Source: a virus. Taken from it: DNA of 64,000 nt. A program made the translations under genes and the position numbers. Every line of letters begins with the position of its first letter. Position 1 is the first letter of the stretch. The stretch lies in IMG/VR virus record IMGVR_UViG_3300035696_000001; one strand, given 5' to 3'. The notes below the pieces were generated by a model, which made no database searches, was not told the origin of the DNA, and saw only the letters and a program-made list of their open reading frames with translations. This document shows, in pieces, positions 2,408 through 20,481 of this stretch.

Positions 2408-3160
2408 TTACAGCAGCAGTCCTGCTTCTTTCGCCCGCGTGCAGTCGAGGGAGATGAAGTCCACCTCGCCGTTGCGCTTCGGTCTGATTTCTGCTGGGAC
2501 GCCGCGCTTTTTGCTATATTCCTCGGCAAGCTCCCTGATGCCGGTCTCGATGCCCGAGCCGATGTTGTACGTCCCGTTTGGTGCGTCCAAGGCGCGGACG
2601 ATTGCCTTGCACACCGTGTCCACATGCACGAAGTCGCGGGTCTGATCGCCGCCGTAGATTGTTATGGGGCTGTCGTTCTCGAAGTGGTTATGGACGGCTG
2701 CTTCGCCGCGCATGCCGCAGTCGCCGCCGTAAACGTTCGCCAGCCGCAGGATCACGTAATTCGCATGGAGGTATTGGACGATCAATTCCGCCTGGAGTTT
2801 GCTGCGCGTGTAAGGCGACCGGCAGTTGGCGAAGTCTGCGTCCTGCTCCCCTGCCATTCGCCGGTTGCCGTACAAGCCCCCGGTTGAGATGAACACGAGC
2901 CTGCCGATCTTGTTGCCTTGGAGGAAGTCCCACAGACCGGCTGCGTTGTTCTGGTAGTACTCCTCCGGCTTTTCGAACGACCCCATGACGCTGACGAGCG
3001 CGGCAAGGTGAATGACGGAAGAGAAGCTTCTGCCTTTGATGTCGCGGTAGTCCTCCCCGCGCTTTAGGTCGCAGCCTTCCCAGCCGGGCAACAGCCTCTT
3101 CAGGTGGGTGCCGATGTACCCGGCGTCGCCGATGATGATGAGGCTTCCCGGCATATACAA
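2408..3160 (-). CDS. NAD-dependent epimerase/dehydratase (short SDR-type nucleotide-sugar enzyme)
   Basis: Rossmann motif GDAGYIGTHL and catalytic YTRSK. Paralog of 10849..11658. Confidence 0.65.
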   Translation of the reverse strand: MYMPGSLIIIGDAGYIGTHLKRLLPGWEGCDLKRGEDYRDIKGRSFSSVIHLAALVSVMGSFEKPEEYYQNNAAGLWDFLQGNKIGRLVFISTGGLYGNRRMAGEQDADFANCRSPYTRSKLQAELIVQYLHANYVILRLANVYGGDCGMRGEAAVHNHFENDSPITIYGGDQTRDFVHVDTVCKAIVRALDAPNGTYNIGSGIETGIRELAEEYSKKRGVPAEIRPKRNGEVDFISLDCTRAKEAGLLL

Positions 3161-3217
3161 TAATCGTTCGCATAGACGGGAAACCTAAGCGCGAAAACCG
3201 TGCATTTGTGGGAAACA

Positions 3218-3844
3218 TTACTGACACAGAACTTGTAATTCCTGAAGAGTCTTTGCCTTTCCGGTATTGGGGTGAAAGGCATCGCCCGTGCAATCACAAA
3301 CCGCGACTGCCGAGCGATAATCAGGCTCGCGCCATCCGGGTACCCGAAGAGTATAACGCCTGTCCCAGTAGGGCATGATGCCATGCGTGTGGAGCACGCC
3401 GCCGACCCAGCGGTCTTCTGCCCATTCATTGGGCGGAATGGGGGCTTCGGCAAGAATTCTCATGCAGCGCTCATCGACCCAGTAACAAAACCCTGAACAC
3501 CATGGCTTGGGCGGGGTTGCGTTGATGAAACCTGCGTACGGCTGCGGCGGGATGGCGGACATGATGCGGTTGGCTGCGATGAAGGTGTCGTCGTCAAGCT
3601 TCATAACTTTCTGGTAACCGTTCGCCAGCGCCCACTGAAACATCAGCTTGACCTTGAGGGGAAGCGAGTGGTAGTCGTCAGGGGCATCAAGAAAGACTTC
3701 GTCGGGCAGCGGCTCCCGATCCTGCTTGGCAAGGAAGAACTTCACGTCCGCGCCTTGGATGCGGGGCACCCACGACGCCCGCTGGGCGTCAGCGCGTTCC
3801 TTGAGCCTTTCGCAGGTCACGACGGCAATTAGGATTTTCGGCAT
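3218..3844 (-). CDS. Fringe-like (GT31-type) glycosyltransferase
   Basis: LIAVVTCERL..ASW N-terminal pattern and DDDTF DxD motif. Paralogous to 16950..18930 trio. Confidence 0.55.
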   Translation of the reverse strand: MPKILIAVVTCERLKERADAQRASWVPRIQGADVKFFLAKQDREPLPDEVFLDAPDDYHSLPLKVKLMFQWALANGYQKVMKLDDDTFIAANRIMSAIPPQPYAGFINATPPKPWCSGFCYWVDERCMRILAEAPIPPNEWAEDRWVGGVLHTHGIMPYWDRRYTLRVPGWREPDYRSAVAVCDCTGDAFHPNTGKAKTLQELQVLCQ

Positions 3845-4803
3845 ACCTGCTCAGCAATCCATCTGTAGGTCGGCACCAAGCCGTCTGCCAAGAGCGTTGC
3901 CGGTTCCCACCCGAGGATTTCACGCAGCCTGCTGTTGTCGCTGTTGCGACCGCGAACACCTTGGGGCTTGCTGAGGTCGTGTACCTTGGTCAGGGTTTTC
4001 CCCGCGATGCCGCTCACGATGTCTACCAGTCCGTCCACGGTCACGAGTTCTTCCGTGCCGAGGTTCAAAGGTTTAGTATATCCAGACGCCATCAGGCGGA
4101 TCAGACCCTCGACGCAGTCGTCGATCCACATGTAGCTGCGGGTCGCCTTCCCGTCGCCCCAGACCTCGATTTCTCCGCCGTCTTGAGCAAGCGCGACCTT
4201 GCGACAGATGGCCGCTGGCGATTTTTCTTTGCCGCCGTCGTAGGTTCCAAGCGGACCGTAAACGTTGTGGAAGCGCACTATGCGGATGTCCAAGCCGTAG
4301 TCCCTCTGGTAGTACTCGCACATCTGCTCGGCGAAGAGTTTCTCCCAGCCGTAACCTGGTTCCGGCAATGCTGGGTAAGCGTCCTCCTCCTTCAACGGCA
4401 CCACGTTGGTGTCGCGCTGTTTGTCTTGGTTGTACACGCATGCCGAGGACGTGTAGAGGTACCTCTTTACGCCCCAGTCTTTGGCGGCTTCCAGCATGTT
4501 GACATTGATGAGGATGTTGTTGCGGGCGATGTCGGCGAGGTATCGTGTGATGTAGCCGATGCCGCCCATGTCCGCCGCAAGGTTGTAGACCTCGTCAAAG
4601 TCCCGGACGCCGTAAGGCACGCAGTTGAAAACGGCGCTTGCGGCGTGGCGCAGGTCGTGGATCACGAACTCGTCTGCGGCGCTCCCTTCGTACTCGGGGT
4701 ACTTGATGTCGATGGCACGCACGAAATGACCGTCGCGCTTCAGCCGCTTGACGAGATGATGCCCGATGAACCCGCCTGCCCCAGTTACAAGGATTTTGCT
4801 CAT
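3829..4803 (-). CDS. Nucleotide-heptose epimerase, HldD/RfaD-like extended SDR
   Basis: VTGAGGFIGHHL. YGWEKLFAEQ matches HldD YGYSKFLFDE and VRFHNVYGP matches HldD FRYFNVYGP. Context is the heptose pathway genes. Confidence 0.6.
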   Translation of the reverse strand: MSKILVTGAGGFIGHHLVKRLKRDGHFVRAIDIKYPEYEGSAADEFVIHDLRHAASAVFNCVPYGVRDFDEVYNLAADMGGIGYITRYLADIARNNILINVNMLEAAKDWGVKRYLYTSSACVYNQDKQRDTNVVPLKEEDAYPALPEPGYGWEKLFAEQMCEYYQRDYGLDIRIVRFHNVYGPLGTYDGGKEKSPAAICRKVALAQDGGEIEVWGDGKATRSYMWIDDCVEGLIRLMASGYTKPLNLGTEELVTVDGLVDIVSGIAGKTLTKVHDLSKPQGVRGRNSDNSRLREILGWEPATLLADGLVPTYRWIAEQVCRKS

Positions 4804-4808
4804 TTCAT

Positions 4809-5489
4809 TTACCTCCTGCCTTTGAATACCCCAGAGTAGCAGCGGCCGATGGCGATGCCCTCATCGGAGCCTTCTACGCACCGCACTCCCCCATAAAACT
4901 CTTTGATTTCTTCTACTTTACCGACCCCCCCAAGCCACTTGTTTAAGAGTGCTTCTGTCTGAATGTGTGAGTGTCCGGGAGAAATCTCGGTGTCGATCCA
5001 GTCGAAGAAACGAACGAGCTTTCCCGATTCGAGTGCGTTGGCGACTATTTTCTCGGGGTTTTCCGTGTGTTCCAAGACATTGTAGACCCAAACTTCATCC
5101 ACATCGAATCCCGAGACATCCTCGCCCTTGAGACGGCGATATTCAATACCAGCGATTGCGTAGCGTTCGACGATCCAGTCGGGAAAGGGCAATGGGTCGG
5201 CTAGGGTACCGCGAACATTCCTGCACTTCAACAGCAGGGAAGTCCCGCCGCCGCCAATATCTAGCACAGACCTGCCGCCAAGGTTGAAGATCGGGTACGG
5301 CGTCCCGTTTTTGAATACGCCTTTTTTGCTTCCCCAAGTCGGCTTGTAATCTGCTTTGTCCGCGTCCCACTCAGCAAAAGAGAAGAGTCCCATGCGTTTT
5401 GCGTACACAAGCTGTTTCATCTCCTCGCCCTCGGTCTCGCCGTGCCCCCACCCGCCGAGTTCCTCAACCTGATCTTCTTCCCAACTCAT
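4809..5489 (-). CDS. Class I SAM-dependent methyltransferase
   Basis: Motif I VLDIGGGGTSLL; acidic post-II motif. Confidence 0.5.
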   Translation of the reverse strand: MSWEEDQVEELGGWGHGETEGEEMKQLVYAKRMGLFSFAEWDADKADYKPTWGSKKGVFKNGTPYPIFNLGGRSVLDIGGGGTSLLLKCRNVRGTLADPLPFPDWIVERYAIAGIEYRRLKGEDVSGFDVDEVWVYNVLEHTENPEKIVANALESGKLVRFFDWIDTEISPGHSHIQTEALLNKWLGGVGKVEEIKEFYGGVRCVEGSDEGIAIGRCYSGVFKGRR

Positions 5490-5492
5490 GGT

Positions 5493-6161
5493 CTATTTCT
5501 CCCTGGTCAAGGGGACTCGTCTTAGTAAACCGCCCTCTGGCTGTATTTCATCATTGCTCCAGTCGTCGTAGACGGCGCTTACCAAACGACCGCTTAAGTG
5601 TCTTGAGGCGTCCGAGGCGAGGAACTCTACCAGCTTCACCGCCGGCCCCGGAACACCGTCGGATTCCGGGTTCATCTTGCTCCTCACAGACCCCGGAGCG
5701 ACGGCGTTAATCTGTATGTTGAAGTCTTTGAATTCGTCAGCCACGCACTCTACAAACCGGACTAGACCGGCTTTGGAAGCTGCATAGGCGGAATACTGAG
5801 GCCTGCCGTATGCTGCCCCGCCGCCCGAAAAATGGATGATTTTTCCGTAATTCTTGCCGACCATGCCGGGGAGAACGGCTTTGGTGAGATGAAAAGCGCC
5901 CACCAGATTTACGTTGATCGCTTGCACCCAGTGATCGGCGGGGTTAGATGTGACCGTCCCCACGGGGCCGAGCACTCCCGTGCAGTTTATGAGAATGTCG
6001 GGCTGGAAACGCGAAGCCGCCTGTTCGACATCCCCCAAGCTGGTGACGTCCACCCGATCTTGGTAAACTGTTGCTCCGCCATCCAGCATCCTCTGGGCTA
6101 CAGCGCTGCCGATCACCCCGGATGCGCCCGCCACCCAAACTTTCTTGCCAGTGAATAGCAT
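5493..6161 (-). CDS. Short-chain dehydrogenase/reductase (SDR)
   Basis: VAGASGVIGSAVA N-terminus and YAASKAG catalytic YxxxK. Confidence 0.7.
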   Translation of the reverse strand: MLFTGKKVWVAGASGVIGSAVAQRMLDGGATVYQDRVDVTSLGDVEQAASRFQPDILINCTGVLGPVGTVTSNPADHWVQAINVNLVGAFHLTKAVLPGMVGKNYGKIIHFSGGGAAYGRPQYSAYAASKAGLVRFVECVADEFKDFNIQINAVAPGSVRSKMNPESDGVPGPAVKLVEFLASDASRHLSGRLVSAVYDDWSNDEIQPEGGLLRRVPLTREK

Positions 6162-6162
6162 G

Positions 6163-7143
6163 CTACACCTCTACCCACACTTTTGCCGCTGCGCTGGCGT
6201 ACGCCGCCTCTATCAGTCGCTGCGCTTGCAGCCCGTCATGGCTGTTGCTTTGCAAGACGTTTCCCATGATCTCGTTTTCGAAGGCGGCCCAGTCTATTTC
6301 CCAGTGAGCCAGACTGTTTTCAAATGTTTGCGTGACCTCTGTGGGTCGGCTGTGATCCGGCAGCCGGTGCCCCGCAGTTAGTTTTTGGGGGCCGTAGAAC
6401 CCGTCGCGCCCCTCCAGTCTCAGGTAACCGTCGGTCCCAAAGATTTCCAACTCAAAGATGCTCATCCATTGGGTCCAGCTAACGTGAATCTGCGCCATCC
6501 CCTGCTGGGTTTCTAAGAGAAGAAACGCGTTGTCTTCGGTGTTAGAGAATTTGTGGAAGCAGCAATCCGTCCTCGCTAGCACTTTTCGGGGTTCGCCGAA
6601 AAGGTATCGAACTAAGTCCAGCACATGAATGGCTTGTTCAATCAAGACGCCCCCGCCGCTGAACTCTTTTTGGGTACACCAATCCTTCTCGTAGCCGGGG
6701 TGCCCGCCGTGCCCGTAGCGGCACCTGACGAACATGGGGCGTCCTATGTCACCCCTGTCAAGGCGGGCTTTGGCTGCTCGAACATGCGACATGTGCCGGT
6801 AGTTGAATCCGACGTGTAGCATGCGACTATTCTCTTTGGCGCAGGCGCACATGTCTAGGGCCTCTGAAAGATTCAGACCAAGCGGCTTCTCGCACAGGAC
6901 ATGCTTGCCCTTTTTAAGGGCTTCCATGGCTAGCTCAGCGTGGTACTTCGTGGGCGTGGCGATCACGACGGCGTCGATGTCTTTTCGTGAGAGAATTGAT
7001 TCCTTGGTGTCCGCCAAGTCGGGAGATACCTTGCCGTGGGTGGGGTCATGCGCAGCGACAAGCACAGACCGCTCCGAGTTTTTGATCGCCTCGGCGCGGA
7101 ACTGTCCCGCTCGACCCATCCCGAATATAGCTACGTTGATCAT
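6163..7143 (-). CDS. Gfo/Idh/MocA-family NAD(P) oxidoreductase
   Basis: Start at the internal Met MINVAIFGMGRAGQ, giving an ATGA overlap with the upstream gene. EKPL motif. Typical sugar oxidoreductase. Confidence 0.7.
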   Translation of the reverse strand: MINVAIFGMGRAGQFRAEAIKNSERSVLVAAHDPTHGKVSPDLADTKESILSRKDIDAVVIATPTKYHAELAMEALKKGKHVLCEKPLGLNLSEALDMCACAKENSRMLHVGFNYRHMSHVRAAKARLDRGDIGRPMFVRCRYGHGGHPGYEKDWCTQKEFSGGGVLIEQAIHVLDLVRYLFGEPRKVLARTDCCFHKFSNTEDNAFLLLETQQGMAQIHVSWTQWMSIFELEIFGTDGYLRLEGRDGFYGPQKLTAGHRLPDHSRPTEVTQTFENSLAHWEIDWAAFENEIMGNVLQSNSHDGLQAQRLIEAAYASAAAKVWVEV

Positions 7144-8012
7144 TGGCTGGTTTCCCGGATTTTGTCTACGAGTTCCACAGCGTCCAAAAGAGGGGTCTTG
7201 CAGCCGTACCGACGCCCCAATTCCTGGAGGACGTGCAGGTCTCTTATCAAGTGCCCGCCCGAAAGCCCCCAACCGGGGTTCACGTACGACTTTCCCCCCA
7301 CTCTGCTATCCGCTTTGGTGGCCCGAGCTACGTCCATCTCGTCGGCACCCACCTTTTTACATAGGTTTGCTATCTCGTTGGCGAAGCTGATCTGCGTCGC
7401 CAGCATGGTGTTGTGGGCGTGCTTGGCCATCTCAGCGGATCGCAGGCCCATTTGCAGAACGGGACGACCCAACGGCCGGTACAGGCTGACGACGCGCTCC
7501 AAGACTGCGGGGTCGTCCGCCCCTATGATAATCCGGTCTGCGTACAGAAAATTGGACACCGATTGGCCGGGCCGCAAAAGCTCTGGAACGTAAGCCACCA
7601 TTCCGCTTGTCAAACTCTCTGTCGTGCCCACGGGCACCTGAGAAGTTACGCACAGGATGCTGCCTGCGGATCGCAGTTCTTCTATCTTGGAGGCTGTGAC
7701 TAATGTGGATTCCAGCAGCAGCCCCTTCTCGTTAAACGGTAGGTCAATCGAAAGAAACACAAAGTCAGCCTCAGAGACGGCCTCGTTGTCTGTGGTGAAT
7801 CGAAGGCGGCGGAGAAGCAAGTTGTTGCGAAGCAGGGTCTCCAACCCCGGCTCGGGGATAGCGCCGGAATAATGCCCCGAATTCAACGCAGCAACGCAAC
7901 CGGCATCTCCGTCAATGGCCACGACCTGATAGCCTATCTCAGAGAAGCAAGCCGCTTGAACCACGCCCTGATGCTGCAAGCCTACGATGCAAATTTTGGG
8001 GGCGTCGCTCAT
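7140..8012 (-). CDS. UDP-glucose/GDP-mannose dehydrogenase-family protein, C-terminally truncated
   Basis: N-terminal NAD domain and central domain (RSAEMAKHAHNTMLATQISFANEIANLCKKVGAD, GWGLSGGHL). Only 290 aa, so the C-terminal UDP-binding domain is absent. Confidence 0.55.
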   Translation of the reverse strand: MSDAPKICIVGLQHQGVVQAACFSEIGYQVVAIDGDAGCVAALNSGHYSGAIPEPGLETLLRNNLLLRRLRFTTDNEAVSEADFVFLSIDLPFNEKGLLLESTLVTASKIEELRSAGSILCVTSQVPVGTTESLTSGMVAYVPELLRPGQSVSNFLYADRIIIGADDPAVLERVVSLYRPLGRPVLQMGLRSAEMAKHAHNTMLATQISFANEIANLCKKVGADEMDVARATKADSRVGGKSYVNPGWGLSGGHLIRDLHVLQELGRRYGCKTPLLDAVELVDKIRETSQ

Positions 8013-8725
8013 AGTTTGTACCCAGACTCCTGTGCGTCGCGGTAAAACATCCGCACGGTCTCAAGGGAGTATTCGTCGAGGTCTTTGCCCACAAGCGGGA
8101 GCTTTTTCAGGATGTCGGTCGTCGCCGTGATGATGTGGCATCCGACCGCGTCGGCTTGGAATACGTTCAGGAGTTCTCGCGGGGACGCCCAAAGGAGTTC
8201 GGCGTTGGGCGCGACGGAGTTGATGCGTCGCACCGCCTCCGCCATCTCTGGCACGGGGTCGCGCCCGGTGTCTGCGATGCGCCCCGCGAAAACGGAGATG
8301 TAGGCTGGAGCGCCGCCCGTCAGTGCGTCGCAGCACTGATCGACCTGCTCCAAGGTCATGAGAGCGGTCACGTTGACCTTGATGCCGTCGTGGGACAACT
8401 TGTCTACCAAACCGTAGGATTCGACGCCACGAGTATCGGTAACGGGGATTTTGACATAGACATTGCCTCCCCATGAAGCGATCTTGAGCGCCTGTGCTTG
8501 CATCGAGGCGTAATCGTCCGCGAGTACTTCGAAAGAGACGGGACGATCCGGCACGGATTCCAGTAGGTCTTTCGCGAAGGCTTCGTAATCCTTGATGCCA
8601 GCCTTGCGCATCAAGGTAGGATTTGTCGTGAAACCTTTAATGACGGGGTTCTTGTAAAGCTCCAGAATCGTAGCCTTGTCGGCACCGTCGCCGAAGATTT
8701 TCACTTTCAAATCGGTTACGTTCAC
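8009..8725 (-). CDS. tal: Transaldolase / fructose-6-phosphate aldolase family
   Basis: GFTTNPTL signature and ISVFAGRI. Start assigned to the GTG at 8725, in a GTGA overlap with the upstream stop. The ORF-track 5' extension is Arg-rich junk. Confidence 0.75.
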   Translation of the reverse strand: MNVTDLKVKIFGDGADKATILELYKNPVIKGFTTNPTLMRKAGIKDYEAFAKDLLESVPDRPVSFEVLADDYASMQAQALKIASWGGNVYVKIPVTDTRGVESYGLVDKLSHDGIKVNVTALMTLEQVDQCCDALTGGAPAYISVFAGRIADTGRDPVPEMAEAVRRINSVAPNAELLWASPRELLNVFQADAVGCHIITATTDILKKLPLVGKDLDEYSLETVRMFYRDAQESGYKL

Positions 8726-9825
8726 GGCTTGTCTCCCCGCAGAATCCAGCCCACAGCCTCTCTGAGGGATAGTACCGTGGCATCCGGCGTCGTTTCTGGG
8801 GTTTCGTTGCTGGATTCGATGAACACCGTTTTGCAGCCCGCTGCTTTGCCAGCAATGACATCTCGCCAATAGTCGCCGACCATGTAGCTGGAACCAAGGT
8901 CGATATTGAACGCCTCGGCAGCGAGCGCAAGCATGCCCGGCTTCGGCTTCCGGCAGCCGCAACCATCCTCATCGGAATGGTAGCAAACGTAAATGCGGTC
9001 TATGGGGAGTTCGGCAAGTAGCCTCTCGTTCACAGCTTCGACGAGGCTCCTTTTCACGAGACCTCGACCCACGTCGGGTTGATTCGTGACAACGATAAGC
9101 CTGTAGCCTGCTTCCTTGAGGTTGGCGAGGAGGGCCGCTGCTCCGGGAACGATTCTCAACTCCTCGACGGACTTGGGCGGAAACCGGTCCTCGGTCAGGG
9201 TGCCGTCTCGGTCTAAGAATACCGCCCGCTGGGGAAGCATGGACTCCCACTTGGTTTGTGCTTGCTTCAGAAGGGGATGGGAAACGAGGAGATGCCAAAC
9301 CACGGCCTGGAACGCCTCCGAGTGGGGCGTCACGCGGTCCGGGTTCGCCGTGGGGATTACGACGCATGCGTCCGCGACCTTGGCTGTGTACCCGCCGTCC
9401 CGCCCCACGATGCCCACCACGCGGCTCCCGACGCTTCTGGCGTAGTCTATGGCGGACACCAAGTTGGGGCTGACGTTCCTTTCCGCATCGCCTCCGCCCA
9501 CGGATAGAATCAAAAGCGTGTCCGTGGCTTTCAGGCGGCTGCCCCTGAGCCAAGCCGCGAAGACAGTCGCCCACCCTTCGTCGTTGGTTCTGGCTGTCAG
9601 TTCCGCGACGTTGTCGGTGGGGGCGTAGGCTTCGATCCCGGCTATCTTGCGGAAGTCGTTGACAGCGTGGGAAGCGTTGGCGGCGCTGCCCCCCACGCCC
9701 AAAACAAAGAGCCGACCGTTTTTGCGTGTGTCGGCGAGAATCTCAGCGCTGCGCTCTATCGCATCGAGGTCCAGCGCGGCGGCAATCTGCTGCACTTCCT
9801 CAAGGAAGAGTCTCGAAAAACTCAT
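8722..9825 (-). CDS. gmhA-gmhB: Bifunctional sedoheptulose-7-P isomerase (GmhA, SIS) / D,D-heptose-1,7-bisphosphate phosphatase (GmhB, HAD) fusion
   Basis: N-terminal SIS domain LFVLGVGGSAANASH. C-terminal HAD domain with FLDRDGTLTED and VVTNQ. Confidence 0.75.
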   Translation of the reverse strand: MSFSRLFLEEVQQIAAALDLDAIERSAEILADTRKNGRLFVLGVGGSAANASHAVNDFRKIAGIEAYAPTDNVAELTARTNDEGWATVFAAWLRGSRLKATDTLLILSVGGGDAERNVSPNLVSAIDYARSVGSRVVGIVGRDGGYTAKVADACVVIPTANPDRVTPHSEAFQAVVWHLLVSHPLLKQAQTKWESMLPQRAVFLDRDGTLTEDRFPPKSVEELRIVPGAAALLANLKEAGYRLIVVTNQPDVGRGLVKRSLVEAVNERLLAELPIDRIYVCYHSDEDGCGCRKPKPGMLALAAEAFNIDLGSSYMVGDYWRDVIAGKAAGCKTVFIESSNETPETTPDATVLSLREAVGWILRGDKP

Positions 9826-10802: not shown

Positions 10803-10848
10803 TCAATTTAAGCCTCAAATTAGGGCTTGAAAGTCTGCAACATAGGAT

Positions 10849-12431: not shown

Positions 12432-12439
12432 TGAAACGA

Positions 12440-13084: not shown

Positions 13085-14121
13085 GCGTTTCCCTTTTCAT
13101 CCAGTTTTGTTCTGTCCGCCAACTGCTGTTCCAGCCTGGCGACTTCCTTGCGCAGGATGCCGATTTCTTCTTCTGATTTGTGGAGTCTTTCCTGATGGAG
13201 GGCGTTCTCAGCTTTTAGTTGCTGCTCCACCTCGGCGACTCTCTCACGCAGGCTGCCGTTATCAGCTTTCAATTTTTCGCACTCAGTAACCAGAAATTGC
13301 ATATATTTTTCCTCGCAGTATCGTGCCTGTATCGTGCACTGCCACCTTGACCATTGGTGAAAGATGAAGTACGGTACGATGTCCGTTGCTTCGTTGTCCT
13401 CTATTTCATTATTCATCATCAATCCGTTCGTCAGTTTTCCGTGCGCCTCTACGAACGGGGCAAACACGAACTTATCTTTATATCGGAAGATTTTTGTTCT
13501 GTCCTTGTACTTGTCCTGGCGGATCAGGACGTTCAACCCCTGTTGGTCGCCGAGGCAGTCATCGTGTGTTGGGTGAAACTTTTCCCTTCGCTTGTCCCTC
13601 AAGCACATCGTGTAAATGTCCCGGCACAGGTCGGCGGCAACGTCCGGCAAGCCTGCGATGACCCCAGCGTTGAGGATTTCCTGTCCCATGAGGGACTCGT
13701 GAACTTCGTGGCCAAAGGCGTCGCAAAGCACCTTGTCATTCTCCTCGTACCGTCCGCTGTAGAGGTGCTCTTCGGAGCCAATAGCCAGGCTGTAGCCGCC
13801 GAGGCTGCCCCGTATCCACTCCATTGGGTTGCGCTGGAACACGACATCCTTGGTGTCGATCAGCAAAACGTAGCGAAGAGCAGTAGCTTCCTTGGCTAAG
13901 ATTTCGGAGATGATGCGGAACCGCGCCATGGCGGCTTCCTCCCCTTTGGAATCGACATCGCAGGTCTCGATGTCGTACGCCTCCAGTTTTTTGTCCTTGC
14001 AGTCAGTGATGAGAATACAGCGCCCGTGGTACCCCGACCACCGCAAAGAAACGACAAAAAACTCCAGTTCCTTCCAACCGTAGCCCGCAGCCATGCCGAT
14101 AATGAGATCATTCTCATTCAT
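13081..14121 (-). CDS. Putative glycosyltransferase-like protein with C-terminal coiled coil
   Basis: N-terminal nucleotide-diphospho-sugar-transferase-like region (LLIDTKDVVF). Last ~80 aa are a heptad-rich coiled coil (LKADNGSLRERVAEVEQQLKAEN..). Function uncertain. Confidence 0.35.
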   Translation of the reverse strand: MNENDLIIGMAAGYGWKELEFFVVSLRWSGYHGRCILITDCKDKKLEAYDIETCDVDSKGEEAAMARFRIISEILAKEATALRYVLLIDTKDVVFQRNPMEWIRGSLGGYSLAIGSEEHLYSGRYEENDKVLCDAFGHEVHESLMGQEILNAGVIAGLPDVAADLCRDIYTMCLRDKRREKFHPTHDDCLGDQQGLNVLIRQDKYKDRTKIFRYKDKFVFAPFVEAHGKLTNGLMMNNEIEDNEATDIVPYFIFHQWSRWQCTIQARYCEEKYMQFLVTECEKLKADNGSLRERVAEVEQQLKAENALHQERLHKSEEEIGILRKEVARLEQQLADRTKLDEKGNA

Positions 14122-14831
14122 TGATGCGCCTTGGGGTTGTCCTTCTCGATATGTATGATTTTGGGGACAAAATCAGGCGTATGCCAGATATGGGGCGCTC
14201 TCCAATAGATACGGTTGGGCGGAAACGCATAGGCCGGTGAAAGAGCTATCGCCGGGGGGTTGTGTTCCAAGTAGCAGTTCCAGTGAGACTCATCTTGCCA
14301 TTTCGCCACGATGCCCCTGCCGTCGTCAATGTCGATGTTGCGGGCGAGAATCTTGCATACCGCCAAATACTCGGGGGCCGAGCCGCCTTGGAAGCAGCCT
14401 TGGTAGTAAAAACGGTGGCTTTGGAGAAACGCTGTCGATTCTCGTCTAGTTTCGACATTCGCCCCCTCGCCGCTGGGGATGTAGTTCCGCTCCACACCGG
14501 GGTGAAGCACCGCTGTAATGCCTTTAGCACAGAATTCTTCTTCGAGAATGGGGGCCACGACCCTCATGTCGATGTCGATGTGCATCAGGTAGTCATAACC
14601 GGCAAGCCAGTCCGCTTGGCTGGATATGGCATGGTAGCGCATCATGCCAGCACGCGGCCACCCCAAATGCGGGTACTCCACGACGCGGGCATCATACGGA
14701 GCTTTGCTGTCCGTGAACAGGACTGGGTCGCAGGGCGGGAAGAACTTCCGCAGCGACTCAATGAGGGGCGGAACGAAGCTCAGGAATTCTTGCTTTCCCG
14801 TCGCGATCAGGATTACGGCAATCTTGCTCAT
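14118..14831 (-). CDS. GT6-family glycosyltransferase (ABO blood-group alpha-1,3-Gal/GalNAc-transferase-like)
   Basis: Start at the internal Met MSKIAVIL, in an ATGA overlap. Aligns with the catalytic region of human GTA/GTB: YLMHIDIDM (DxD), RRESTAFLQSHRFYYQGCFQGG, KWQDESHWNCYLE and ALSPAYAFP. Confidence 0.8.
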   Translation of the reverse strand: MSKIAVILIATGKQEFLSFVPPLIESLRKFFPPCDPVLFTDSKAPYDARVVEYPHLGWPRAGMMRYHAISSQADWLAGYDYLMHIDIDMRVVAPILEEEFCAKGITAVLHPGVERNYIPSGEGANVETRRESTAFLQSHRFYYQGCFQGGSAPEYLAVCKILARNIDIDDGRGIVAKWQDESHWNCYLEHNPPAIALSPAYAFPPNRIYWRAPHIWHTPDFVPKIIHIEKDNPKAHQ

Positions 14832-15508
14832 AAATCGTAGCCGCCCCGGTGCAAAAGTAAGACACCGTGAAAAAACCTGTGCTGCCATCCGGGCACATCG
14901 AAAGGATAGCCCTGATCCACGAGATAGTGACTTACTTCGCACGGACAACCCAACTCGTGGCACGGGTACCCCCGGAACGAAGTCACAGAGCAGCGGTCAC
15001 AGTCAGTTGCCAGCCGCTTCACGTCGTCAACGACGACGAAAGAGTCTGGGGCAAATTTTGCGATGGCGGCAAGTTCAAGCGGAACCTGGAACTCGCATGT
15101 CGTATGGGCATTGTCTCCGAAACAATGAGCGTCGAGCCAGAATAGGACACGCTTGCCGCTCGGAGGCGATGCCCATACCAGTGTCGGCAGGAAGTTTGGC
15201 AGCCAAGCGCCGCTGGAGCCGTGAACGCAGTGAACATTGGGCGCATTTTTGAACCTCTCTGTTGCCTTCTGGTACAAATCGTCACTCAGTTCGATAGTCC
15301 AGATTTCATCAAAATGGTTTTGGCAGGCAGCGGGCATGTTTCCCTTGTACGTTCCCGTTTCGACGAGGACGTTCAGGTCAAAGTGCTCGCCCAGCGCGAT
15401 GAGCAAGTCTCTGCGCCAGTTGTCGGTGGGATGCACCATGTCCGTGCCGCCGTAGCTCTTCCAAAACAACAAATCATTCGTAGTTGCAGGATCGCGAAAG
15501 GTGAACAT
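14828..15508 (-). CDS. SAM-dependent O-methyltransferase (CmcI/Methyltransf_24-like)
   Basis: Start at the internal Met MFTFRD. VLVETGTYKGN and FWLDAHC motifs. Confidence 0.45.
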   Translation of the reverse strand: MFTFRDPATTNDLLFWKSYGGTDMVHPTDNWRRDLLIALGEHFDLNVLVETGTYKGNMPAACQNHFDEIWTIELSDDLYQKATERFKNAPNVHCVHGSSGAWLPNFLPTLVWASPPSGKRVLFWLDAHCFGDNAHTTCEFQVPLELAAIAKFAPDSFVVVDDVKRLATDCDRCSVTSFRGYPCHELGCPCEVSHYLVDQGYPFDVPGWQHRFFHGVLLLHRGGYDL

Positions 15509-16122
15509 TAAAGAACCCTCACGCTGACCGCCGCTTCCCCGCTGTCCCCGATTGTGTGCAGGGCAAGGTATTCGTAGGGGCGTCCTTGGATGAATTCCTG
15601 GAACGCCTTGAACTCGTGCTCCCGCCATCCGGGGTAATCCATGTACTCGTCGAACATGATGACCGTCCCCGGCACAATCTTGGGGCCGAAGTTGTCGAAC
15701 ACCGTTTTGGTGGACGAATAAATGTCGCAGTCGATGTGTATAAAAGAGATCGGACCGGGATGCGACCTTGCGAAATCGGGAAGCGTGTCCGCAAACAGGC
15801 CCTTTACGATCTCTACATTTTCTCGAACTTTGGGCACGTCGCATTTGTTGCGCCCCTTTGGGGCGTTGCCCGGCCAATCCTCTGGCAGCCCTTCAAAGGA
15901 GTCGAAGCCGTAAATCTTGGCGGGCGCTACCAAGTCCGCGAGGCAGTTCAAACTACCGCCTGTCGCCACGCCCAACTCCATGATCAGACCCTCTATGGAG
16001 CGGGCGTCAGTGGAATACCTGTAAAAGTAGTGGCGACCGCTGGGGCGGTAAGAAGAATCGTCTGTGGGAAAGAGAAAGCGTGCGACTGTTTTCCCAGAGA
16101 AATAAAGATTCGAGTCGCGCAT
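15508..16122 (-). CDS. TylF-family sugar O-methyltransferase
   Basis: ELGVATGGS, FDSFEGLPE and IHIDCDIYSST. Confidence 0.6.
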   Translation of the reverse strand: MRDSNLYFSGKTVARFLFPTDDSSYRPSGRHYFYRYSTDARSIEGLIMELGVATGGSLNCLADLVAPAKIYGFDSFEGLPEDWPGNAPKGRNKCDVPKVRENVEIVKGLFADTLPDFARSHPGPISFIHIDCDIYSSTKTVFDNFGPKIVPGTVIMFDEYMDYPGWREHEFKAFQEFIQGRPYEYLALHTIGDSGEAAVSVRVL

Positions 16123-16123
16123 T

Positions 16124-16960
16124 TTATAGTTTTATAGCCGGGACTGTACCCGGCTCCCCCATTTTCACCCACCGCTCGGGAACAACGTCGTCGTAGCGGA
16201 CGGGCGCGTTGCCGAACCATTTCTTGGGTGCGATCACGATTCGGTCGGCCTGTGTGTCACCGAGCCAAGCGCCCCACCAGCCAAACGAGCTATTAGGAAA
16301 GATGGCGTGGCGGCACAGGCTCATCAACCACAAGTCCTCGTGCTCGTGCCCCGGACTGTCGCCGAAGCCCATCTTGTTGTGGTCTACGATTGTGCAGTCG
16401 GCAAACCTCTCCCGGCACCCGTCTGGGTCGTCCGAAAAGACGAAGAATTTCGCATCGGCAATACGTTCGCGTACGTATTGCATCGCCTCTGCATAATAGT
16501 CCCACGTCATGTTGCCGTGGAACGCCGCCTGCCCCGCGCCGAGGTAGTCGGTTCGCCGCACATGGATGAACGCGCTCTGCGGCGCTGCCGCGATTGCGTC
16601 AGCAACCCGCTTGGTCTGCTCGCCGACCGGGTTTCTGAGCGTAAAATCCCTTCGGATCAGGTCGGGTTCTGGCTCAAAGTATTTTTCCGTCTGCCAGCAG
16701 CCCCGGAAATTTGTCCCGTTCGGTACTTTGTAAACTTGCGGATCGAAAATCAGGTGCGATTCGTCGAAAAAAGGCCCTCCGCCTCCCCCGAACCGTACGT
16801 CGCGGACATTGAAGACGTCAAGCCCGTAGGCGCGGTGGCATCCGGGCCCCAAACCTACCTTGTAGAACAAAACATCCTCCCTTCGCACCCGCGAAACGCA
16901 GCGACCGAAAGCGTACTGGAACATCTGGTTGCCCAGGCCTCCATTGAGCCTAACCAACAT
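16124..16960 (-). CDS. GT11 alpha-1,2-fucosyltransferase (FutC/WbsJ/FUT2-like)
   Basis: Canonical motif I GGLGNQMFQYAF. HVRRTDY, FVFSDD and SSFGWWGAWL motifs match H. pylori FutC and E. coli WbnK. Confidence 0.85.
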   Translation of the reverse strand: MLVRLNGGLGNQMFQYAFGRCVSRVRREDVLFYKVGLGPGCHRAYGLDVFNVRDVRFGGGGGPFFDESHLIFDPQVYKVPNGTNFRGCWQTEKYFEPEPDLIRRDFTLRNPVGEQTKRVADAIAAAPQSAFIHVRRTDYLGAGQAAFHGNMTWDYYAEAMQYVRERIADAKFFVFSDDPDGCRERFADCTIVDHNKMGFGDSPGHEHEDLWLMSLCRHAIFPNSSFGWWGAWLGDTQADRIVIAPKKWFGNAPVRYDDVVPERWVKMGEPGTVPAIKL

Positions 16961-17585
16961 TACCCATCTCCCTGTGCTTCTTGTACATCCACGACACGTT
17001 GAAAGTTCGTCCTACAGTAGCGGAACAAAAGTGCGATGTTATCTCGTCGTTGTCACCGTACCGGATGTCGTCTTTCGCGGTGAGCCGACCTTCTGCGACC
17101 GCCGCCCCCACTATTTGGCCGATCCATTTGTCCTCGGCCCACGTATCAGGTTCCAGGCGCACGACCACCTCCATGGCACGCCGCGACATCCAATAGCCTG
17201 CCCCGCCCGATGCCCACGCATACCCGCCCTCCCTGACCCCCGGCACGCCTATCGGCCCGTTGAACCTGCCGATTTGGTCATATCCCTGCGGGTCGTAGGC
17301 AGCTAGCTTGGACATTACTGCGTAGGTGTCCGTGTCCGCTAAAAAAGCGTGGTCGTAGTCGTGCGCCAGTACCCACCCGAATATGGCGCGGGTCTTGTGC
17401 GGCAAGTCCAGATAGGCGTCGCCGCAATCCAACGGCTCCTCGTCCGGCGCAAGTTCGCCCCCGCCCCGCCCAACAAAAAACCTGTAATCAACTGGGCAGT
17501 TCTTCAGCCACGTGTCACGTACGGCTTGGTTGAATCCGTTGCGGCAATCGCGATAGCAGCTTTTTACGGCAATCAGTCTTTTCAC
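16950..17585 (-). CDS. Fringe-like (GT31-type) glycosyltransferase, paralog 1
   Basis: LIAVKSCYRD..VRDTW and DTDTYA DxD. ATGA overlap with the upstream paralog. Confidence 0.55.
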   Translation of the reverse strand: MKRLIAVKSCYRDCRNGFNQAVRDTWLKNCPVDYRFFVGRGGGELAPDEEPLDCGDAYLDLPHKTRAIFGWVLAHDYDHAFLADTDTYAVMSKLAAYDPQGYDQIGRFNGPIGVPGVREGGYAWASGGAGYWMSRRAMEVVVRLEPDTWAEDKWIGQIVGAAVAEGRLTAKDDIRYGDNDEITSHFCSATVGRTFNVSWMYKKHREMGNVG

Positions 17586-18223
17586 AGTATGCCTTTCGCC
17601 TTTTCGTGCACGGCATACAGGTTTGCCCTGTCACGTAGGTTCGTCAAAGAATTCCGTTCGTGGTTGTGACAGGTGATGACGTCGTTGTCGGGCTGGGGGC
17701 CTACCATTGTTCCCCTGTCAGTGCCGATCCTGTACCGGGGATCATGGAACGGTAGGATTCCGGCTTGCCTGAGCACGTAGCGCACCCACCAATCCTCAGC
17801 GCCGGAGCAAGCCGCAATTTCCCCCCTCGCCAAGAGCGCCTCCATCGCCCTGCGGCTGAGCCAATATCCCGTTCCGCCAAAGACGCTGTCGTCCCCCTGT
17901 ACGAATCCCGAATAGTCGTGCCTCTCAAAGCCCGAGGCGAGAAGGCGCGGGACGTGGACGTAGGTGTCCGTATCGCACCGGAACAGGTTGTCGTAGCCGT
18001 TCGCGAGCGCCCACGAAATTGACCCGAGTATTTTCAGACGAAGCTCAGAGCCGCCGCCATCGGGCACGTCCAAGAAGGTCTCGTCTGCTTCCGCATCCGG
18101 CTCCTTGGGGACTCCCAAAAAGAACCTGGTGTCCGCAGCCGGGGCGCTCAGCCACGTGTCACGGATTTGCGCATGGCACCAGCGGTCGCGATGGCAACTC
18201 TCTATGGCGATGAGGGGTTTCAC
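17582..18223 (-). CDS. Fringe-like glycosyltransferase, paralog 2
   Basis: GTG start in a GTGA overlap. VKPLIAIESCHRD..IRDTW and CDTDTYV. Confidence 0.55.
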   Translation of the reverse strand: MKPLIAIESCHRDRWCHAQIRDTWLSAPAADTRFFLGVPKEPDAEADETFLDVPDGGGSELRLKILGSISWALANGYDNLFRCDTDTYVHVPRLLASGFERHDYSGFVQGDDSVFGGTGYWLSRRAMEALLARGEIAACSGAEDWWVRYVLRQAGILPFHDPRYRIGTDRGTMVGPQPDNDVITCHNHERNSLTNLRDRANLYAVHEKAKGIL

Positions 18224-18930
18224 AGCGCACCCGCCGAGAGTTGGTGCGCCCTGTACATCATGCTCGGGTTGTAGGCACCCGTGCCGCAGCCGAGGTGTAC
18301 GCTGATCCCGTCGTATCCGTAGAGTTGGAGACGGTCGCCCTTGAACAGGTAACGGGGGTCGTGGTAGCCGTGCATCCCCAAGGGAAGCAGGATATTTGGA
18401 ATCCAAAGGTCTTCGGCTGGGTTGCCCTTGTTGTCGAGCCGCCTCCAGTCTAAGGGTGCGGCAACGATGGCTTCCATTGCGCGTTTGCTAGTCCAATAGC
18501 CGCATCCCCCCGAACAATAGGGGTAGACCCCTCGGGGATCGCAGTACTCGCTCAGGGTTTGCCCGTCCGCTGGCAGATAGCCTTCCTGCGGATGCAGGGG
18601 AAAGTGGCCCACGTAGTCACTCCGGTCAAAGCCGGAGACGAGCAGACGTCTCGGCGACAGGTAGGTGTCGCGGTCAGCCTTGAACACCCATTCATATTCG
18701 TGCTCAAGCGCCCATTTCCGTATGGCTTGCGACTTTTCCGGCAGGTGGGGGTAGTCATCCGGCACGTCAAGACGCTCCTCGTCGGGGAGCAGCGTCCGGC
18801 TGCCTTGCCCCACGAATATCTTGTAGTCCAGCCCCGGCACCATGTGCTGCATCCACGTGCGCCGCATGGCGTCGTGGCAGCCGTTTGCCGCGTCGCGCTC
18901 GCAACTCATCACGCCTATGAGAATTTTCAC
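18220..18930 (-). CDS. Fringe-like glycosyltransferase, paralog 3
   Basis: GTG start in a GTGA overlap. VKILIGVMSCERD..MRRTW and ADRDTYL. Confidence 0.55.
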   Translation of the reverse strand: MKILIGVMSCERDAANGCHDAMRRTWMQHMVPGLDYKIFVGQGSRTLLPDEERLDVPDDYPHLPEKSQAIRKWALEHEYEWVFKADRDTYLSPRRLLVSGFDRSDYVGHFPLHPQEGYLPADGQTLSEYCDPRGVYPYCSGGCGYWTSKRAMEAIVAAPLDWRRLDNKGNPAEDLWIPNILLPLGMHGYHDPRYLFKGDRLQLYGYDGISVHLGCGTGAYNPSMMYRAHQLSAGAL

Positions 18931-19676
18931 GCCCCCACCCAATCCTTGATGCCCTCTTTCCTCAGCATAATCGTGTGCCCTGCTGCGAAAGCCCGCCTGC
19001 GGAACCGCCCGTAGCGGGGGTCCTGCACGTCCGCCCCGGTGCCCAGCTTGAACGTGTCCACGCTCCAGCCGGGCAGCCACACCGTGACCCTGCCCGCCTT
19101 CTTCATGTGCCAGAAGAACTGCCCGTGCTCCCCGCCTATGGGGCGGACCTCCTCGTCCCACGGCACCCCGCGCAGCGTCGATGCGCGTGCGAGGAACGCG
19201 TTCACCACGAGGTCGCACCGCTGGTAGGGCGACCCGTCCGGCACCAGGCGGATTTCGCGGATCACATTCTTTTCGGCGTCAAAAACAAGATTTGATTCGT
19301 ACGGGTTGCCGTCCACGCGCCCGCCCACCAAGTCGATTTCGGGGTGCGTGTCGAGGATGTCGGCGGCTTTGGTCAAGCTTTCTTTGAACCCTTTGGTCGC
19401 GAAGTCGAAGTCGTCAGCGCCGCAGTACCAGTAAGGCGTCTCGCACAGGAGCACGCCACGGTTGCGCTTCGCCGTCAAGCCCGAGTCGAACGGCAACCAA
19501 GCCCACTGGGTGTTGAGCATGGGCGCACGCGGAGTCAAGTCCATGCCGCTCCCGCTGTCGTCCACGACGATCACTTGGCATTCCGGCAAGCTCATGCGGA
19601 CGCTGTCGAGGCACGCCCGCAGATAGCCCGGACGTAAGAAGGAGGATATAAACACTGAAATTTCATTAAGTGGCAT
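18927..19676 (-). CDS. GT2-family glycosyltransferase
   Basis: ISVFISSF, VVDDSGSG and GLTAKRNRG GT-A motifs. Confidence 0.65.
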   Translation of the reverse strand: MPLNEISVFISSFLRPGYLRACLDSVRMSLPECQVIVVDDSGSGMDLTPRAPMLNTQWAWLPFDSGLTAKRNRGVLLCETPYWYCGADDFDFATKGFKESLTKAADILDTHPEIDLVGGRVDGNPYESNLVFDAEKNVIREIRLVPDGSPYQRCDLVVNAFLARASTLRGVPWDEEVRPIGGEHGQFFWHMKKAGRVTVWLPGWSVDTFKLGTGADVQDPRYGRFRRRAFAAGHTIMLRKEGIKDWVGA

Positions 19677-19809
19677 GTGCCCTCACTTTCTTTTCGCGGT
19701 AACGGCGTGCTTTCTCTGCTCCAGTCAACGGTCTCTCACCTATGCGACGATAAGTACGGTGTCCTCCTATCCTCGCGGAGCCACATGTACGTGTAGTAGA
19801 CCTTGTCCA

Positions 19810-20481
19810 TCACAAATCTCCCCCCACCAACTGCTGGATGGTCTCGAACGGAACCGGCTTGTATTCGTTGCTGGTAAAGTTTTTTCGGCAGGCGTTCGTG
19901 TCGTGTATGCTGGCAATGACGAGCTTGGGGTCGAACAAATCCAATTTCGCCTCGGCAGGCAGTTTCCTCTGCAAATTATAGTCGGCACCCGCAACGATAT
20001 GGTCGAACTTGTTCTGCTCCCAGACGGATTTCCGAAACGCAATAGCCCCCAGCCAGCCGATGGACTTCGGGCTGGTGTACTGCCATGCCTTCTGCATGTC
20101 CTTCCGGTAGTAGTACAACGTGGACGTGCCCGTCATCTGCACCTGCTGCCGGTCGATCATGGGCTGTATCTGGCGTGCAAGGCGGTCTGTTGAATAGACG
20201 TCGTCATCGTCCCAAACGAGGAGAAAAGCCCCAGACGCCAGTTCGATGCATTGGTTGAGTTTGATCCCATGGTTGTAAACGTTCGATTGCCATGTGTACT
20301 TGATCCTCGGGTCATCCGGCAGCAGGGGCTTGACCGGCTCGGTCGAATCGTCAAGTATCAAAAGCTCCACGACCCAGTCAGCGGGGTACTGCTGCGCCTG
20401 AAAGCAGCGGATCGCACGCGGGATGAACCCACAGCGGTTGCGCGTGGGCATTAACGCTGATACGATTAAGGGGCTAGGCAT
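19810..20481 (-). CDS. GT2-family glycosyltransferase
   Basis: VSALMPTRNR and LVWDDDDV. First gene of the island, 133-bp gap to the next gene. Confidence 0.65.
   Translation of the reverse strand: MPSPLIVSALMPTRNRCGFIPRAIRCFQAQQYPADWVVELLILDDSTEPVKPLLPDDPRIKYTWQSNVYNHGIKLNQCIELASGAFLLVWDDDDVYSTDRLARQIQPMIDRQQVQMTGTSTLYYYRKDMQKAWQYTSPKSIGWLGAIAFRKSVWEQNKFDHIVAGADYNLQRKLPAEAKLDLFDPKLVIASIHDTNACRKNFTSNEYKPVPFETIQQLVGGDL

Follow-up and report, generated by a model that had tools for sequence, protein, structure and literature searches.

The 64,000-nucleotide stretch of viral DNA analyzed here (IMG/VR record IMGVR_UViG_3300035696_000001; below, the window) carries an island of 23 consecutive minus-strand genes, g23 to g01, that runs from position 20481 down to position 2408 (~18 kb). 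The best explanation of this island is that it is an accessory glycan-biosynthesis region of an uncultivated jumbo myophage from peat. The original prediction, made from the letters alone, described an uninterrupted and mostly translationally coupled array of about 24 genes; the array was borne out, while gene calling sets the count at 23. Independent calls on identical public contigs agree for all 15 genes covered there. The coding fraction of the island is 0.989, and no credible gene lies on the opposite strand between 2408 and 20481. Fourteen of the 22 internal junctions are overlaps, nine of them 4-nt ATGA or GTGA overlaps and five others of 1 to 25 nt; the rest are five gaps of 1 to 11 nt and three gaps longer than 60 nt (133 nt after g23, 79 nt after g11, and 63 nt after g02). 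Terminator-like sites are depleted (9 found versus 22.5 expected from shuffled sequence), no minus-strand site of this kind falls in an intergenic gap of the island, and the five intergenic gaps showed no recurring promoter-like motif. The overlapping junctions and the absence of internal terminators give the island the structure of an operon, and a 186-bp divergent intergenic region lies upstream of g23.

Searches with Pfam, NCBIfam, and PDB profiles confirmed nearly every gene family call of the original prediction, including its nine or ten glycosyltransferases, of which nine are confirmed by profiles (four GT31-like, one each of GT32, GT6, and GT11, and two GT2-like) and one more is suggestive. 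The first gene of the leftward unit, g23 (19810..20481; all island genes are on the minus strand), encodes a GT2 glycosyltransferase (Pfam Glycos_transf_2, 51.9 bits, above the cut-off). It is followed by g22 (18927..19676), a GT-A glycosyltransferase of the GT2/GT12-like type that matches B4GALNT1 in the PDB (E = 1.8e-7) as well as PglI, scores slightly under the cut-off for Pfam GT2 (21 bits), and has a 59% identical ortholog in L008, a 142-kb IMG/VR viral contig discussed below. Four genes encode GT31-like paralogs with 31 to 36% identity to one another: g02 (3218..3844; paralog 1), g19 (16950..17585; paralog 2), g20 (17582..18223; paralog 3), and g21 (18220..18930; paralog 4). The first of these exceeds the Pfam Galactosyl_T cut-off (27.4 versus 23 bits); Pfam is blank or weak on the other three, which were assigned with a joint profile of the four paralogs that, when compared with the PDB, recovered C1GalT1 (7q4i; E = 9e-11), B3GALT6 (6e-8), B3GALT5, and Manic Fringe.

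The product of g18 (16124..16960) belongs to GT11, the alpha-1,2-fucosyltransferase family (Pfam PF01531, 73.5 bits, cut-off 23.9; phrog_2644, E = 7e-49), and contains the sequence HVRRTDY, in which the HxRRxD motif is found. That of g15 (14118..14831) is a GT6 glycosyltransferase (Pfam PF03414, 60.5 bits, cut-off 25; phrog_3317, E = 8e-40 across the full length), whose sequence includes DID and WQDESHWN, presumably the DXD and W.DESH.N motifs of GT6. Full-length homologs of the GT11 and GT6 proteins were found by tblastn in 103 and 72 deposited phage records, respectively, almost all of them cyanomyoviruses. A GT32-like glycosyltransferase with a DXD region is encoded by g12 (11655..12464; Pfam Gly_transf_sug, 29 bits, cut-off 23). 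The possible tenth member is g14 (13081..14121), an orphan with a single distant homolog among 5.8 billion proteins, which probably combines a retaining GT-A domain with a C-terminal coiled coil; this low-confidence fold match comes from a poor single-sequence model (predicted local distance difference test score [pLDDT] of 51), for which the top Foldseek matches are all retaining GT-A enzymes (BoGT6a, glycogenin, and UGGT; E about 1e-5). No PHROG family was found for the GT31-like and GT32 proteins, g14, or g22. The island is thus predicted to encode nine or ten GT-A glycosyltransferases, all soluble.

Four sugar O-methyltransferases had also been proposed; three are supported (g04, g13, and g17), whereas the match of the fourth, g16, stayed weak. 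A TylF and Methyltransf_24 sugar O-methyltransferase is encoded by g17 (15508..16122; Pfam, 51.8 and 52.5 bits), homologs of which, 54% identical, lie inside heptose operons of other viral contigs, and a second TylF-family O-methyltransferase by g13 (12440..13081; 147.8 bits). The product of g04 (4809..5489; phrog_3603, E = 5e-35) resembles class I S-adenosylmethionine (SAM) methyltransferases: a profile of its family, which comprises about 400 clusters with members often fused to GT4, GT32, or GT2 domains, matches solely SAM methyltransferases in the PDB (UbiG, E = 3e-4). A possible methyltransferase, g16 (14828..15508) aligns with Methyltransf_24 over the whole profile at an E value of 0.083, gives weak matches to methyltransferases in the PDB, and has two homologs in L008; its structure model reaches a pLDDT of 33. 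Single-sequence phmmer searches of g04, g14, and g16 against the PDB gave no usable match. Chloroviruses also encode methyltransferases for their virion glycans.

The sugar supply centers on a heptose module. A short-type transaldolase, g08 (8009..8725), passes the equivalog cut-off of TIGR02134 (340 versus 282 bits) and would supply sedoheptulose-7-phosphate. In g09 (8722..9825), a GmhA isomerase (SIS_2) is fused to a GmhB 7-phosphatase (HAD-IIIA); searched domain by domain, the top PDB matches are GmhB (E = 3e-25) and GmhA (E = 5e-10). The best PDB matches of residues 1 to 180 are all phosphoheptose isomerases, at a score under the NCBIfam equivalog cut-off, and the HAD-IIIA domain is above its own cut-off. 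The third gene, g10 (9822..10769), encodes a GHMP-type, HddA/WcbL-like heptose-7-phosphate 1-kinase, whose best NCBIfam match is HddA (168 bits, under the cut-off of 600) and whose PDB matches are the heptose kinases WcbL, 3k85, and 4n3o (E about 1e-42). The island thus has three of the heptose route's four enzymes, and every best match is a heptose-specific enzyme.

The sugar-modifying set counts seven oxidoreductases or epimerases, among them four epimerase/dehydratase-type proteins of the short-chain dehydrogenase/reductase (SDR) superfamily, one of which is GDP-fucose-synthase-like. This last is the extended SDR g03 (3829..4803; Pfam Epimerase, 157 bits), whose score with NCBIfam Fcl, 136 bits, is far under the equivalog cut-off. 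Two short SDR epimerase/dehydratases, g11 (10849..11643; Pfam Epimerase, 86.8 bits) and g01 (2408..3154; 102 bits), the last gene of the island, are paralogs with 41% identity. Both match GalE best in NCBIfam, and the earlier label of an HldD-like epimerase was rejected as unspecific because GalE scores higher. The set further contains a classical SDR, g05 (5493..6161; adh_short), a Gfo/Idh/MocA oxidoreductase, g06 (6163..7143), assigned by profiles and belonging to a conserved bacterial cassette, and a UGDH-like NDP-sugar dehydrogenase, g07 (7140..8012), which is truncated, as had been noticed, and lacks its C-terminal domain: it covers positions 2 to 292 of the 413 in TIGR03026, and its homologs in the bacterial cassette have 420 to 454 residues.

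We read ~85 kb of the genome of this phage, spanning -9 kb to +74 kb. No HddC-type nucleotidyltransferase (NTP_transferase or CTP_transf_like) was found in the island, the window, or the flanks, tblastn with bacterial and phage versions of this enzyme returned nothing in the DNA read, and GDP-mannose 4,6-dehydratase (Gmd) was likewise not found. The pathway is therefore not complete as encoded here, and the claim of a complete pathway, fucose supply included, is not supported; its UGDH-like member is truncated as well. Hydrophobic segments are missing from all 23 proteins (hydropathy over 19 residues never reaches 1.5), and profile searches of the island detected neither a flippase, polymerase, or ligase nor an ABC transporter or initiating phosphoglycosyl transferase. 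Nor does it resemble the Gtr-type set with which temperate phages seroconvert their hosts by O-antigen modification (GtrA flippase, GtrB bactoprenol transferase, and membrane GtrC, with a lysogeny module), with no transmembrane protein in the island and no integrase in the ~85 kb.

Downstream of the island, on the same strand, lie an HNH homing endonuclease (1551..2336, minus strand; phrog_12434 and phrog_655), a 170-aa protein, a 1794-aa protein, and then five more large proteins with no recognized domain. The 5' part of the 1794-aa gene occupies 1..1044 (minus strand), 1.3 kb from the island, and its remainder, which runs off the window, was taken from the gene call on an identical contig. 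This protein matches phrog_1645, "virion structural protein," with an E value of 1.7e-11, and its homologs match just 5 to 45% of its length, a mosaic pattern typical of fibres, so we regard it as fibre-like, in agreement with the structural gene originally placed beside the island. In one relative, its homolog lies 8 kb from the tail sheath gene and adjoins a collagen-repeat protein. The fibre-like flank proteins show no similarity to four stretches of the Tunturiibacter phage Tunturi 5 (165.6 of 308.7 kb, including annotated tail-fibre genes), and a pattern scan of IMG/VR found no relatives of them. The best explanation of this arrangement is that the island is the start of a long leftward transcription unit running on into tail-fibre genes. 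The homing endonuclease sits exactly at the junction between island and fibre gene and has the lowest GC content at third codon positions in the region (0.50, compared with 0.71 in the island); an apparent presence/absence polymorphism of this gene between contigs was rejected, as the DNA is identical and the gene calls alone differ. In Tunturi 5, gp35 and gp36 (a glycosyltransferase and a nucleotidyltransferase) lie ~4 kb from the tail-fibre genes gp28 and gp29, just past gp30 to gp34, and are a minimal counterpart of the position of the island.

Both flanks are viral in gene content, with homing endonucleases on both sides. The right flank, on the other strand, encodes a Ro60-like protein, peptide deformylase, Pnk, Rnl1, a CCA-adding enzyme, an SNF2 helicase, a nucleoside deoxyribosyltransferase, IscA/NifU proteins, two dCMP deaminases, NUDIX, ThyX, a Thg1-like protein, and DNA ligase, interspersed with dozens of small unassigned genes. 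The window DNA is the same, base for base, in contigs from at least five peat samples and three assembly pipelines. One of these identical contigs, ena:ERZ27256877:k141_2503787, measures 196,020 bp and holds the island more than 50 kb from both of its ends; the genome is at least 196 kb in size. The helicase of the flank shares 53% identity with its counterpart in Tunturi 5 (PP885688), a tundra-soil myovirus of 309 kb that infects Acidobacteriota, and 62% with a helicase encoded on an IMG/VR contig of 463 kb recovered from the same peat sample. A few neighbouring genes are also common to the window phage and Tunturi 5; the relationship is therefore distant, and Tunturi 5, the closest isolate, is without the glycan island. 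Megablast of window positions 1 to 46000 against 50,697 phage records gave no match. A search with the Tunturi 5 tail sheath yielded 539 relatives, and among the 120 listed, none is on the 196-kb contig or on an 894-kb contig considered next. The relatives of the window phage are isolated or predicted jumbo phages of 243 to 463 kb, and its host is probably a member of the Acidobacteriota.

These data bear directly on the alternative that the island is not phage DNA at all, being instead either the product of a chimeric assembly or a bacterial locus for O-antigen or capsule synthesis with a prophage remnant next to it. Two facts speak for it: heptose cassettes are common in bacterial chromosomes, and a public contig of 894,233 bp, bigger than any relative seen, contains exact copies of the window proteins from 3.8 to 47 kb (3829-47078), while being without those at 49.3, 49.9, 55.6, and 63.4 kb. 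This contig is either a chimera, a strain-variant join, or a genome exceeding any relative seen. A bacterial locus is, however, difficult to reconcile with the identity of the DNA across samples and assemblers, with homing endonucleases flanking both sides, and with relatives that are jumbo phages. The GT6, GT11, and g04 families are phage families in PHROGs, and the island has no initiating transferase, Wzx, Wzy, or ABC transporter and no housekeeping genes at its flanks. No ribosomal or other cellular core gene and no rRNA was found in the ~85 kb read, no tRNA gene in the 64-kb window, and no 100% match among 185,579 species-representative genomes, which together make this alternative very unlikely. 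The viral setting recognized at the outset thus held up, and we consider it very likely that the glycan island is phage-borne.

Several observations on the right flank deserve mention in their own right. The window contains an RNA/tRNA-repair set, consisting of a Ro60/TROVE plus von Willebrand factor A (vWA) protein, Pnk, a T4-type Rnl1, a CCA-adding enzyme, and a Thg1-like 3'-5' polymerase (22750-24174, 29817-30902, 32316-33434, 34992-36317, and about 62071-62979). Rfam scans of the window, including a permissive scan beside the Ro60-like gene, found neither a Y RNA nor any other match, so any RNA bound as a partner by the Ro60-like protein would lie outside the known families. A membrane glycosyltransferase of the GT-C type (PMT_2/STT3-like), 13 kb from the island and the sole membrane glycosylation component seen, is split by one in-frame TGA into two open reading frames (33619-34254 and 34267-34995) with four and two hydrophobic segments; the sequence is the same in all assemblies, and the split may mark a pseudogene, a site of read-through, or an enzyme made of two subunits. 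At 58024-59388, an HNH/endonuclease-VII-like domain (residues about 134 to 303) stands in frame N-terminal to a dCMP deaminase (residues 312 to 447), and a second, stand-alone dCMP deaminase lies 1.5 kb upstream of this fusion. The phage also carries auxiliary genes for Fe-S cluster assembly (IscA-like and NifU_N; 52.9 to 54.7 kb) and peptide deformylase (28555-29088), of a kind likewise typical of cyanomyoviruses. Tunturi 5 gp303, annotated as a DNA methyltransferase, is 51% identical to the product of window positions 36881-37615, which Pfam places in the histidine phosphatase family; the gp303 annotation may therefore be wrong. A 550-aa minus-strand open reading frame at 61384-63036 was rejected as a spurious antisense frame.

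A phage-borne glycan pathway of this size had been called unusual in the original prediction, which proved overstated. The cyanophage P-SSM2 carries 24 "LPS" (lipopolysaccharide) genes in two clusters (PMC1079782), S-SCSM2R has 13 glycosyltransferases among 22 cell-wall genes (PMC12801897), and the host-recognition clusters of pelagimyophages mix glycosyltransferases with tail fibres (PMC7029224). The cluster of ACG-2014f contains Gmd, an SDR, GT11, GT6, a "heptose epimerase," and GT25, and ends 1 kb from a tail-fibre gene. Like these large lytic myoviruses (P-SSM2, ACG-2014f, S-SCSM2R, and S-SSM7), the window phage combines glycosyltransferases with SDR epimerases/dehydratases, and its GT6 and GT11 proteins are full-length homologs of theirs with 32 to 35% identity (PHROG E values of 1e-40 to 1e-49). 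It differs from them in infecting a soil or peat bacterium and belonging to a Tunturi-5-like lineage, not Kyanoviridae, in having one contiguous 23-gene operon and no Gmd in the DNA read, and in its de novo heptose-phosphate module with a transaldolase, four GT31-like paralogs, and three or four methyltransferases. The hypervariable host recognition cluster of pelagimyophages and cyanomyophages (Zaragoza-Solas et al. 2020, PMC7029224) similarly holds tail fibres, many glycosyltransferases, and sugar-nucleotide genes (rfaE and UGDH), but it is a loose, variable region of 35 to 45 kb dominated by GT8, whereas the island described here is compact, translationally coupled, and collinear in L008. 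Located in a phage genome beside a fibre region, and uniting glycosyltransferases, sugar enzymes, and GT6/GT11 homology, the island is a member of the known class of large lytic phage glycan clusters and not a new kind of system. What is new is the host-derived, transaldolase-fed heptose module, GmhB in a virus, the GT31 expansion, the methylation genes, and the lineage and habitat of a soil phage.

A query with GmhA/B retrieved 82 IMG/VR contigs, 80 viral loci of which were kept for neighbourhood counts; a transaldolase lies beside GmhA/B in 71 of them and a GHMP kinase in 58. The transaldolase, GmhA/GmhB, and the GHMP heptose kinase thus form a conserved sub-module that recurs across many bacterial phyla and on at least 58 contigs of uncultivated viruses. 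Among the same 80 viral loci, the rest of the island was found solely in L008, where 17 of the 23 genes are collinear with 26 to 77% identity; compared with the window, this contig has GT11 and g16-like genes in two copies each and lacks the GmhB domain. Such collinearity argues for selection on the island. About 57 AT-rich, T4-like viral contigs (L010 to L086, e.g., L014 at 8.5 to 14 kb, L028, and L072) hold a six-gene module in the order cytidylyltransferase-like gene, GmhA, GmhB, transaldolase, GT4 (GT-B), and GHMP kinase. It lies between glutaredoxin/SpeD-like and rnh/phoH genes, away from structural genes; its GmhA part occurs in no deposited phage genome, and its layout resembles the cluster for heptose on 5-hydroxymethylcytosine (5hmC) DNA described by Pyle et al. 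(10.1101/2023.12.21.572611).

In bacteria, the GmhA/B fusion is common (at least 574 matches), and a transaldolase lies beside it in 70 of 80 bacterial cassette neighbourhoods (L104 to L183). The bacterial cassette comprises an SDR, a full-length UGDH, adh_short, Gfo/Idh/MocA, a GHMP kinase, an NTP_transferase, GmhA/B, and a transaldolase, and occurs in Acidobacteriota, Rhizobium, Asaia, Verrucomicrobiota (including Akkermansia metagenome-assembled genomes), Chlorobium, and others (e.g., L116, L124, L158, and L171); in some Acidobacteriaceae it stands beside a 612-aa GT-C enzyme of the PMT_2 family. Judged by gene content, g05 to g10 are a rearranged copy of the host cassette, minus the nucleotidyltransferase and the C-terminal domain of the dehydrogenase. 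As g09 is 74 to 76% identical to Bryobacterales/Solibacteraceae proteins from peat metagenome-assembled genomes, and the same cassette recurs across bacterial phyla, the heptose module was captured from acidobacterial hosts. Relative to the usual GHMP-kinase heptose route, here the nucleotidyltransferase is absent, GmhA and GmhB are fused, and the transaldolase is inside the operon; we found no literature describing a link between transaldolase and heptose. Viruses encoding NDP-heptose enzymes were surveyed by Tang et al. 2024 (summarised in PMC11461863), where the route is of the beta (HldE) type and the phosphatase is reported absent from viruses; the window differs in following the GHMP-kinase (alpha) route and in having a GmhB phosphatase domain.

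Based on the family assignments, we propose the following pathway. The transaldolase would make sedoheptulose-7-phosphate, which the GmhA domain would isomerize and the HddA/WcbL-like kinase would phosphorylate at position 1, so that isomerase, kinase, and phosphatase together would yield heptose-1-phosphate. Activation to NDP-heptose may be provided by a nucleotidyltransferase of the host or one encoded at a distance in the phage genome, and both the host and more distant parts of the phage genome, which measures at least 196 kb, are candidate sources of GDP-fucose. The four SDRs, the Gfo/Idh/MocA enzyme, the classical SDR, and the truncated NDP-sugar dehydrogenase may tailor nucleotide sugars. 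In the cytoplasm of the infected cell, the GT-A enzymes would then build an oligosaccharide that the methyltransferases cap or decorate, and the likely product is a methylated oligosaccharide containing heptose and probably fucose.

One possible acceptor for these sugars is DNA: the transferases might place heptose or other sugars on a modified phage base and so help the phage to evade restriction. Phage clusters of HAD/kinase, cytidylyltransferase, and GT-B genes do put mono- or diheptose on 5hmC (10.1101/2023.12.21.572611), arabinosylation pathways use the same logic of isomerase, kinase, HAD phosphatase, and nucleotidyltransferase (PMC13326640), and in the AT-rich IMG/VR lineage with the same transaldolase-GmhA-GmhB-kinase core, the operon includes a cytidylyltransferase and a single GT4 (GT-B) gene. 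DNA glycan clusters (Pyle et al. 2024; PMC13326640) share with the island phage-encoded sugar-activation enzymes and glycosyltransferases, with heptose among the sugars, but they adjoin enzymes making 5hmC or 5-hydroxycytosine (5hoC) and are mostly of the GT-B type; neither was found in the DNA read here. In the ~85 kb, no cytosine C5-methyltransferase, TET/5mYOX, or ThyA-type hydroxymethylase was found, only ThyX and dCMP deaminases, and nine or ten GT-A enzymes of LPS- and eukaryote-like families plus O-methyltransferases far exceed the needs of any known DNA glycan. With no GT-B gene and no acceptor-base enzyme in the window island, DNA glycosylation suits the AT-rich lineage better, and we consider it improbable for the phage studied here.

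Virion glycosylation and host-surface remodelling are the two leading explanations. By analogy with chloroviruses and mycobacteriophages, the acceptor may tentatively be sought in the virion proteins of the phage itself, its fibres and capsid. All enzymes of the island are soluble, export and lipid-carrier functions are absent from it, and it is co-directional with the fibre-like protein and five further large genes. Precedent exists in chloroviruses and mimiviruses (PMC4691112) and in mycobacteriophages (Freeman et al. 2023 in PMC12619734), where soluble, virus-encoded glycosyltransferases need no export machinery and assemble the glycans of capsid or tail proteins within the cytoplasm. The parallel is incomplete: mycobacteriophages carry two to four glycosyltransferases, compared with nine or ten in the window.

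In the alternative scenario, the phage remodels the host envelope, raising the supply of heptose and adding new methylated sugars to LPS, capsule, exopolysaccharide, or S-layer intermediates on the inner side of the membrane. The products would be exported by flippases and ligases of the host, and the changed surface would bring superinfection exclusion or keep progeny from binding to debris. The GT6/GT11/epimerase clusters of cyanomyoviruses and pelagimyophages are classically read in this way, and the GT families of the island normally act on lipid-linked LPS or capsule intermediates. A host-derived cassette minus its nucleotidyltransferase would also make the phage dependent on a host that already makes this heptose. 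Several acidobacterial cassettes stand beside a GT-C/PMT_2 membrane transferase, and the phage has its own GT-C-like gene, although split by a stop codon. The island, however, encodes no lipid-carrier, flippase, polymerase, or ligase function and no membrane protein, no homolog of its nine glycosyltransferases lies within 10 kb of any of the 80 bacterial heptose cassettes, it is contiguous and co-oriented with structural genes and not with the opposite-strand early genes, and no lytic phage cluster of this type has yet been proven to act in this way. We therefore regard envelope remodelling as a serious possibility, albeit one against which the odds lean. Immune mimicry, which had also been suggested, finds no support in a peat-soil phage.

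Considering these data, we favor glycosylation of virion proteins by an accessory region of a peat jumbo myophage, and we put the probability of this explanation as a whole, virion acceptor included, at roughly 0.4. The virion acceptor is a suggestion from gene content, position, and precedent, and several points weigh against the explanation. Adjacency to fibre genes is also typical of T4-like hypervariable islands (PMC7029224) and no proof of a functional link. In LPS and capsule synthesis, where glycosyltransferases of the GT6, GT11, GT31, GT2, and GT25 types normally work on lipid carriers, these enzymes are soluble and peripheral as well, so the lack of transmembrane proteins leaves room for the export machinery of the host. 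Without the nucleotidyltransferase, which the bacterial cassette and a second phage lineage have but the window island lacks, the module cannot make the donor sugar alone. Finally, the island lies well inside the 196-kb contig with viral flanks, but the capsid, portal, and terminase genes are outside the ~85 kb read.

"LPS-like" clusters in lytic phages have been known since 2005, none with an experimentally shown product or acceptor. With the island described here, a phenomenon of marine T4-like phages reaches jumbo phages of soil Acidobacteria. The island is one of the largest contiguous examples found, sharpens the question of what such clusters glycosylate, and suggests a specific role for a phage transaldolase. 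As the phage is uncultivated and its closest isolate does not carry the island, the practical impact is limited. A bolder version of our model, which we hold to be unlikely, is that a soil Acidobacteria jumbo phage decorates its own fibres or capsid with an O-methylated heptose/fucose glycan by wholly phage-encoded soluble enzymes, with the captured transaldolase-fed module drawing on host pentose-phosphate carbon. If true, this would be the bacteriophage counterpart of the autonomous glycosylation of chloroviruses and mimiviruses and would answer a question that has stood for 20 years, namely what "LPS" clusters do in lytic phages. It would also follow that transaldolase, one of the classic auxiliary metabolic genes of phages, can work for glycan synthesis and not for NADPH or ribose supply.

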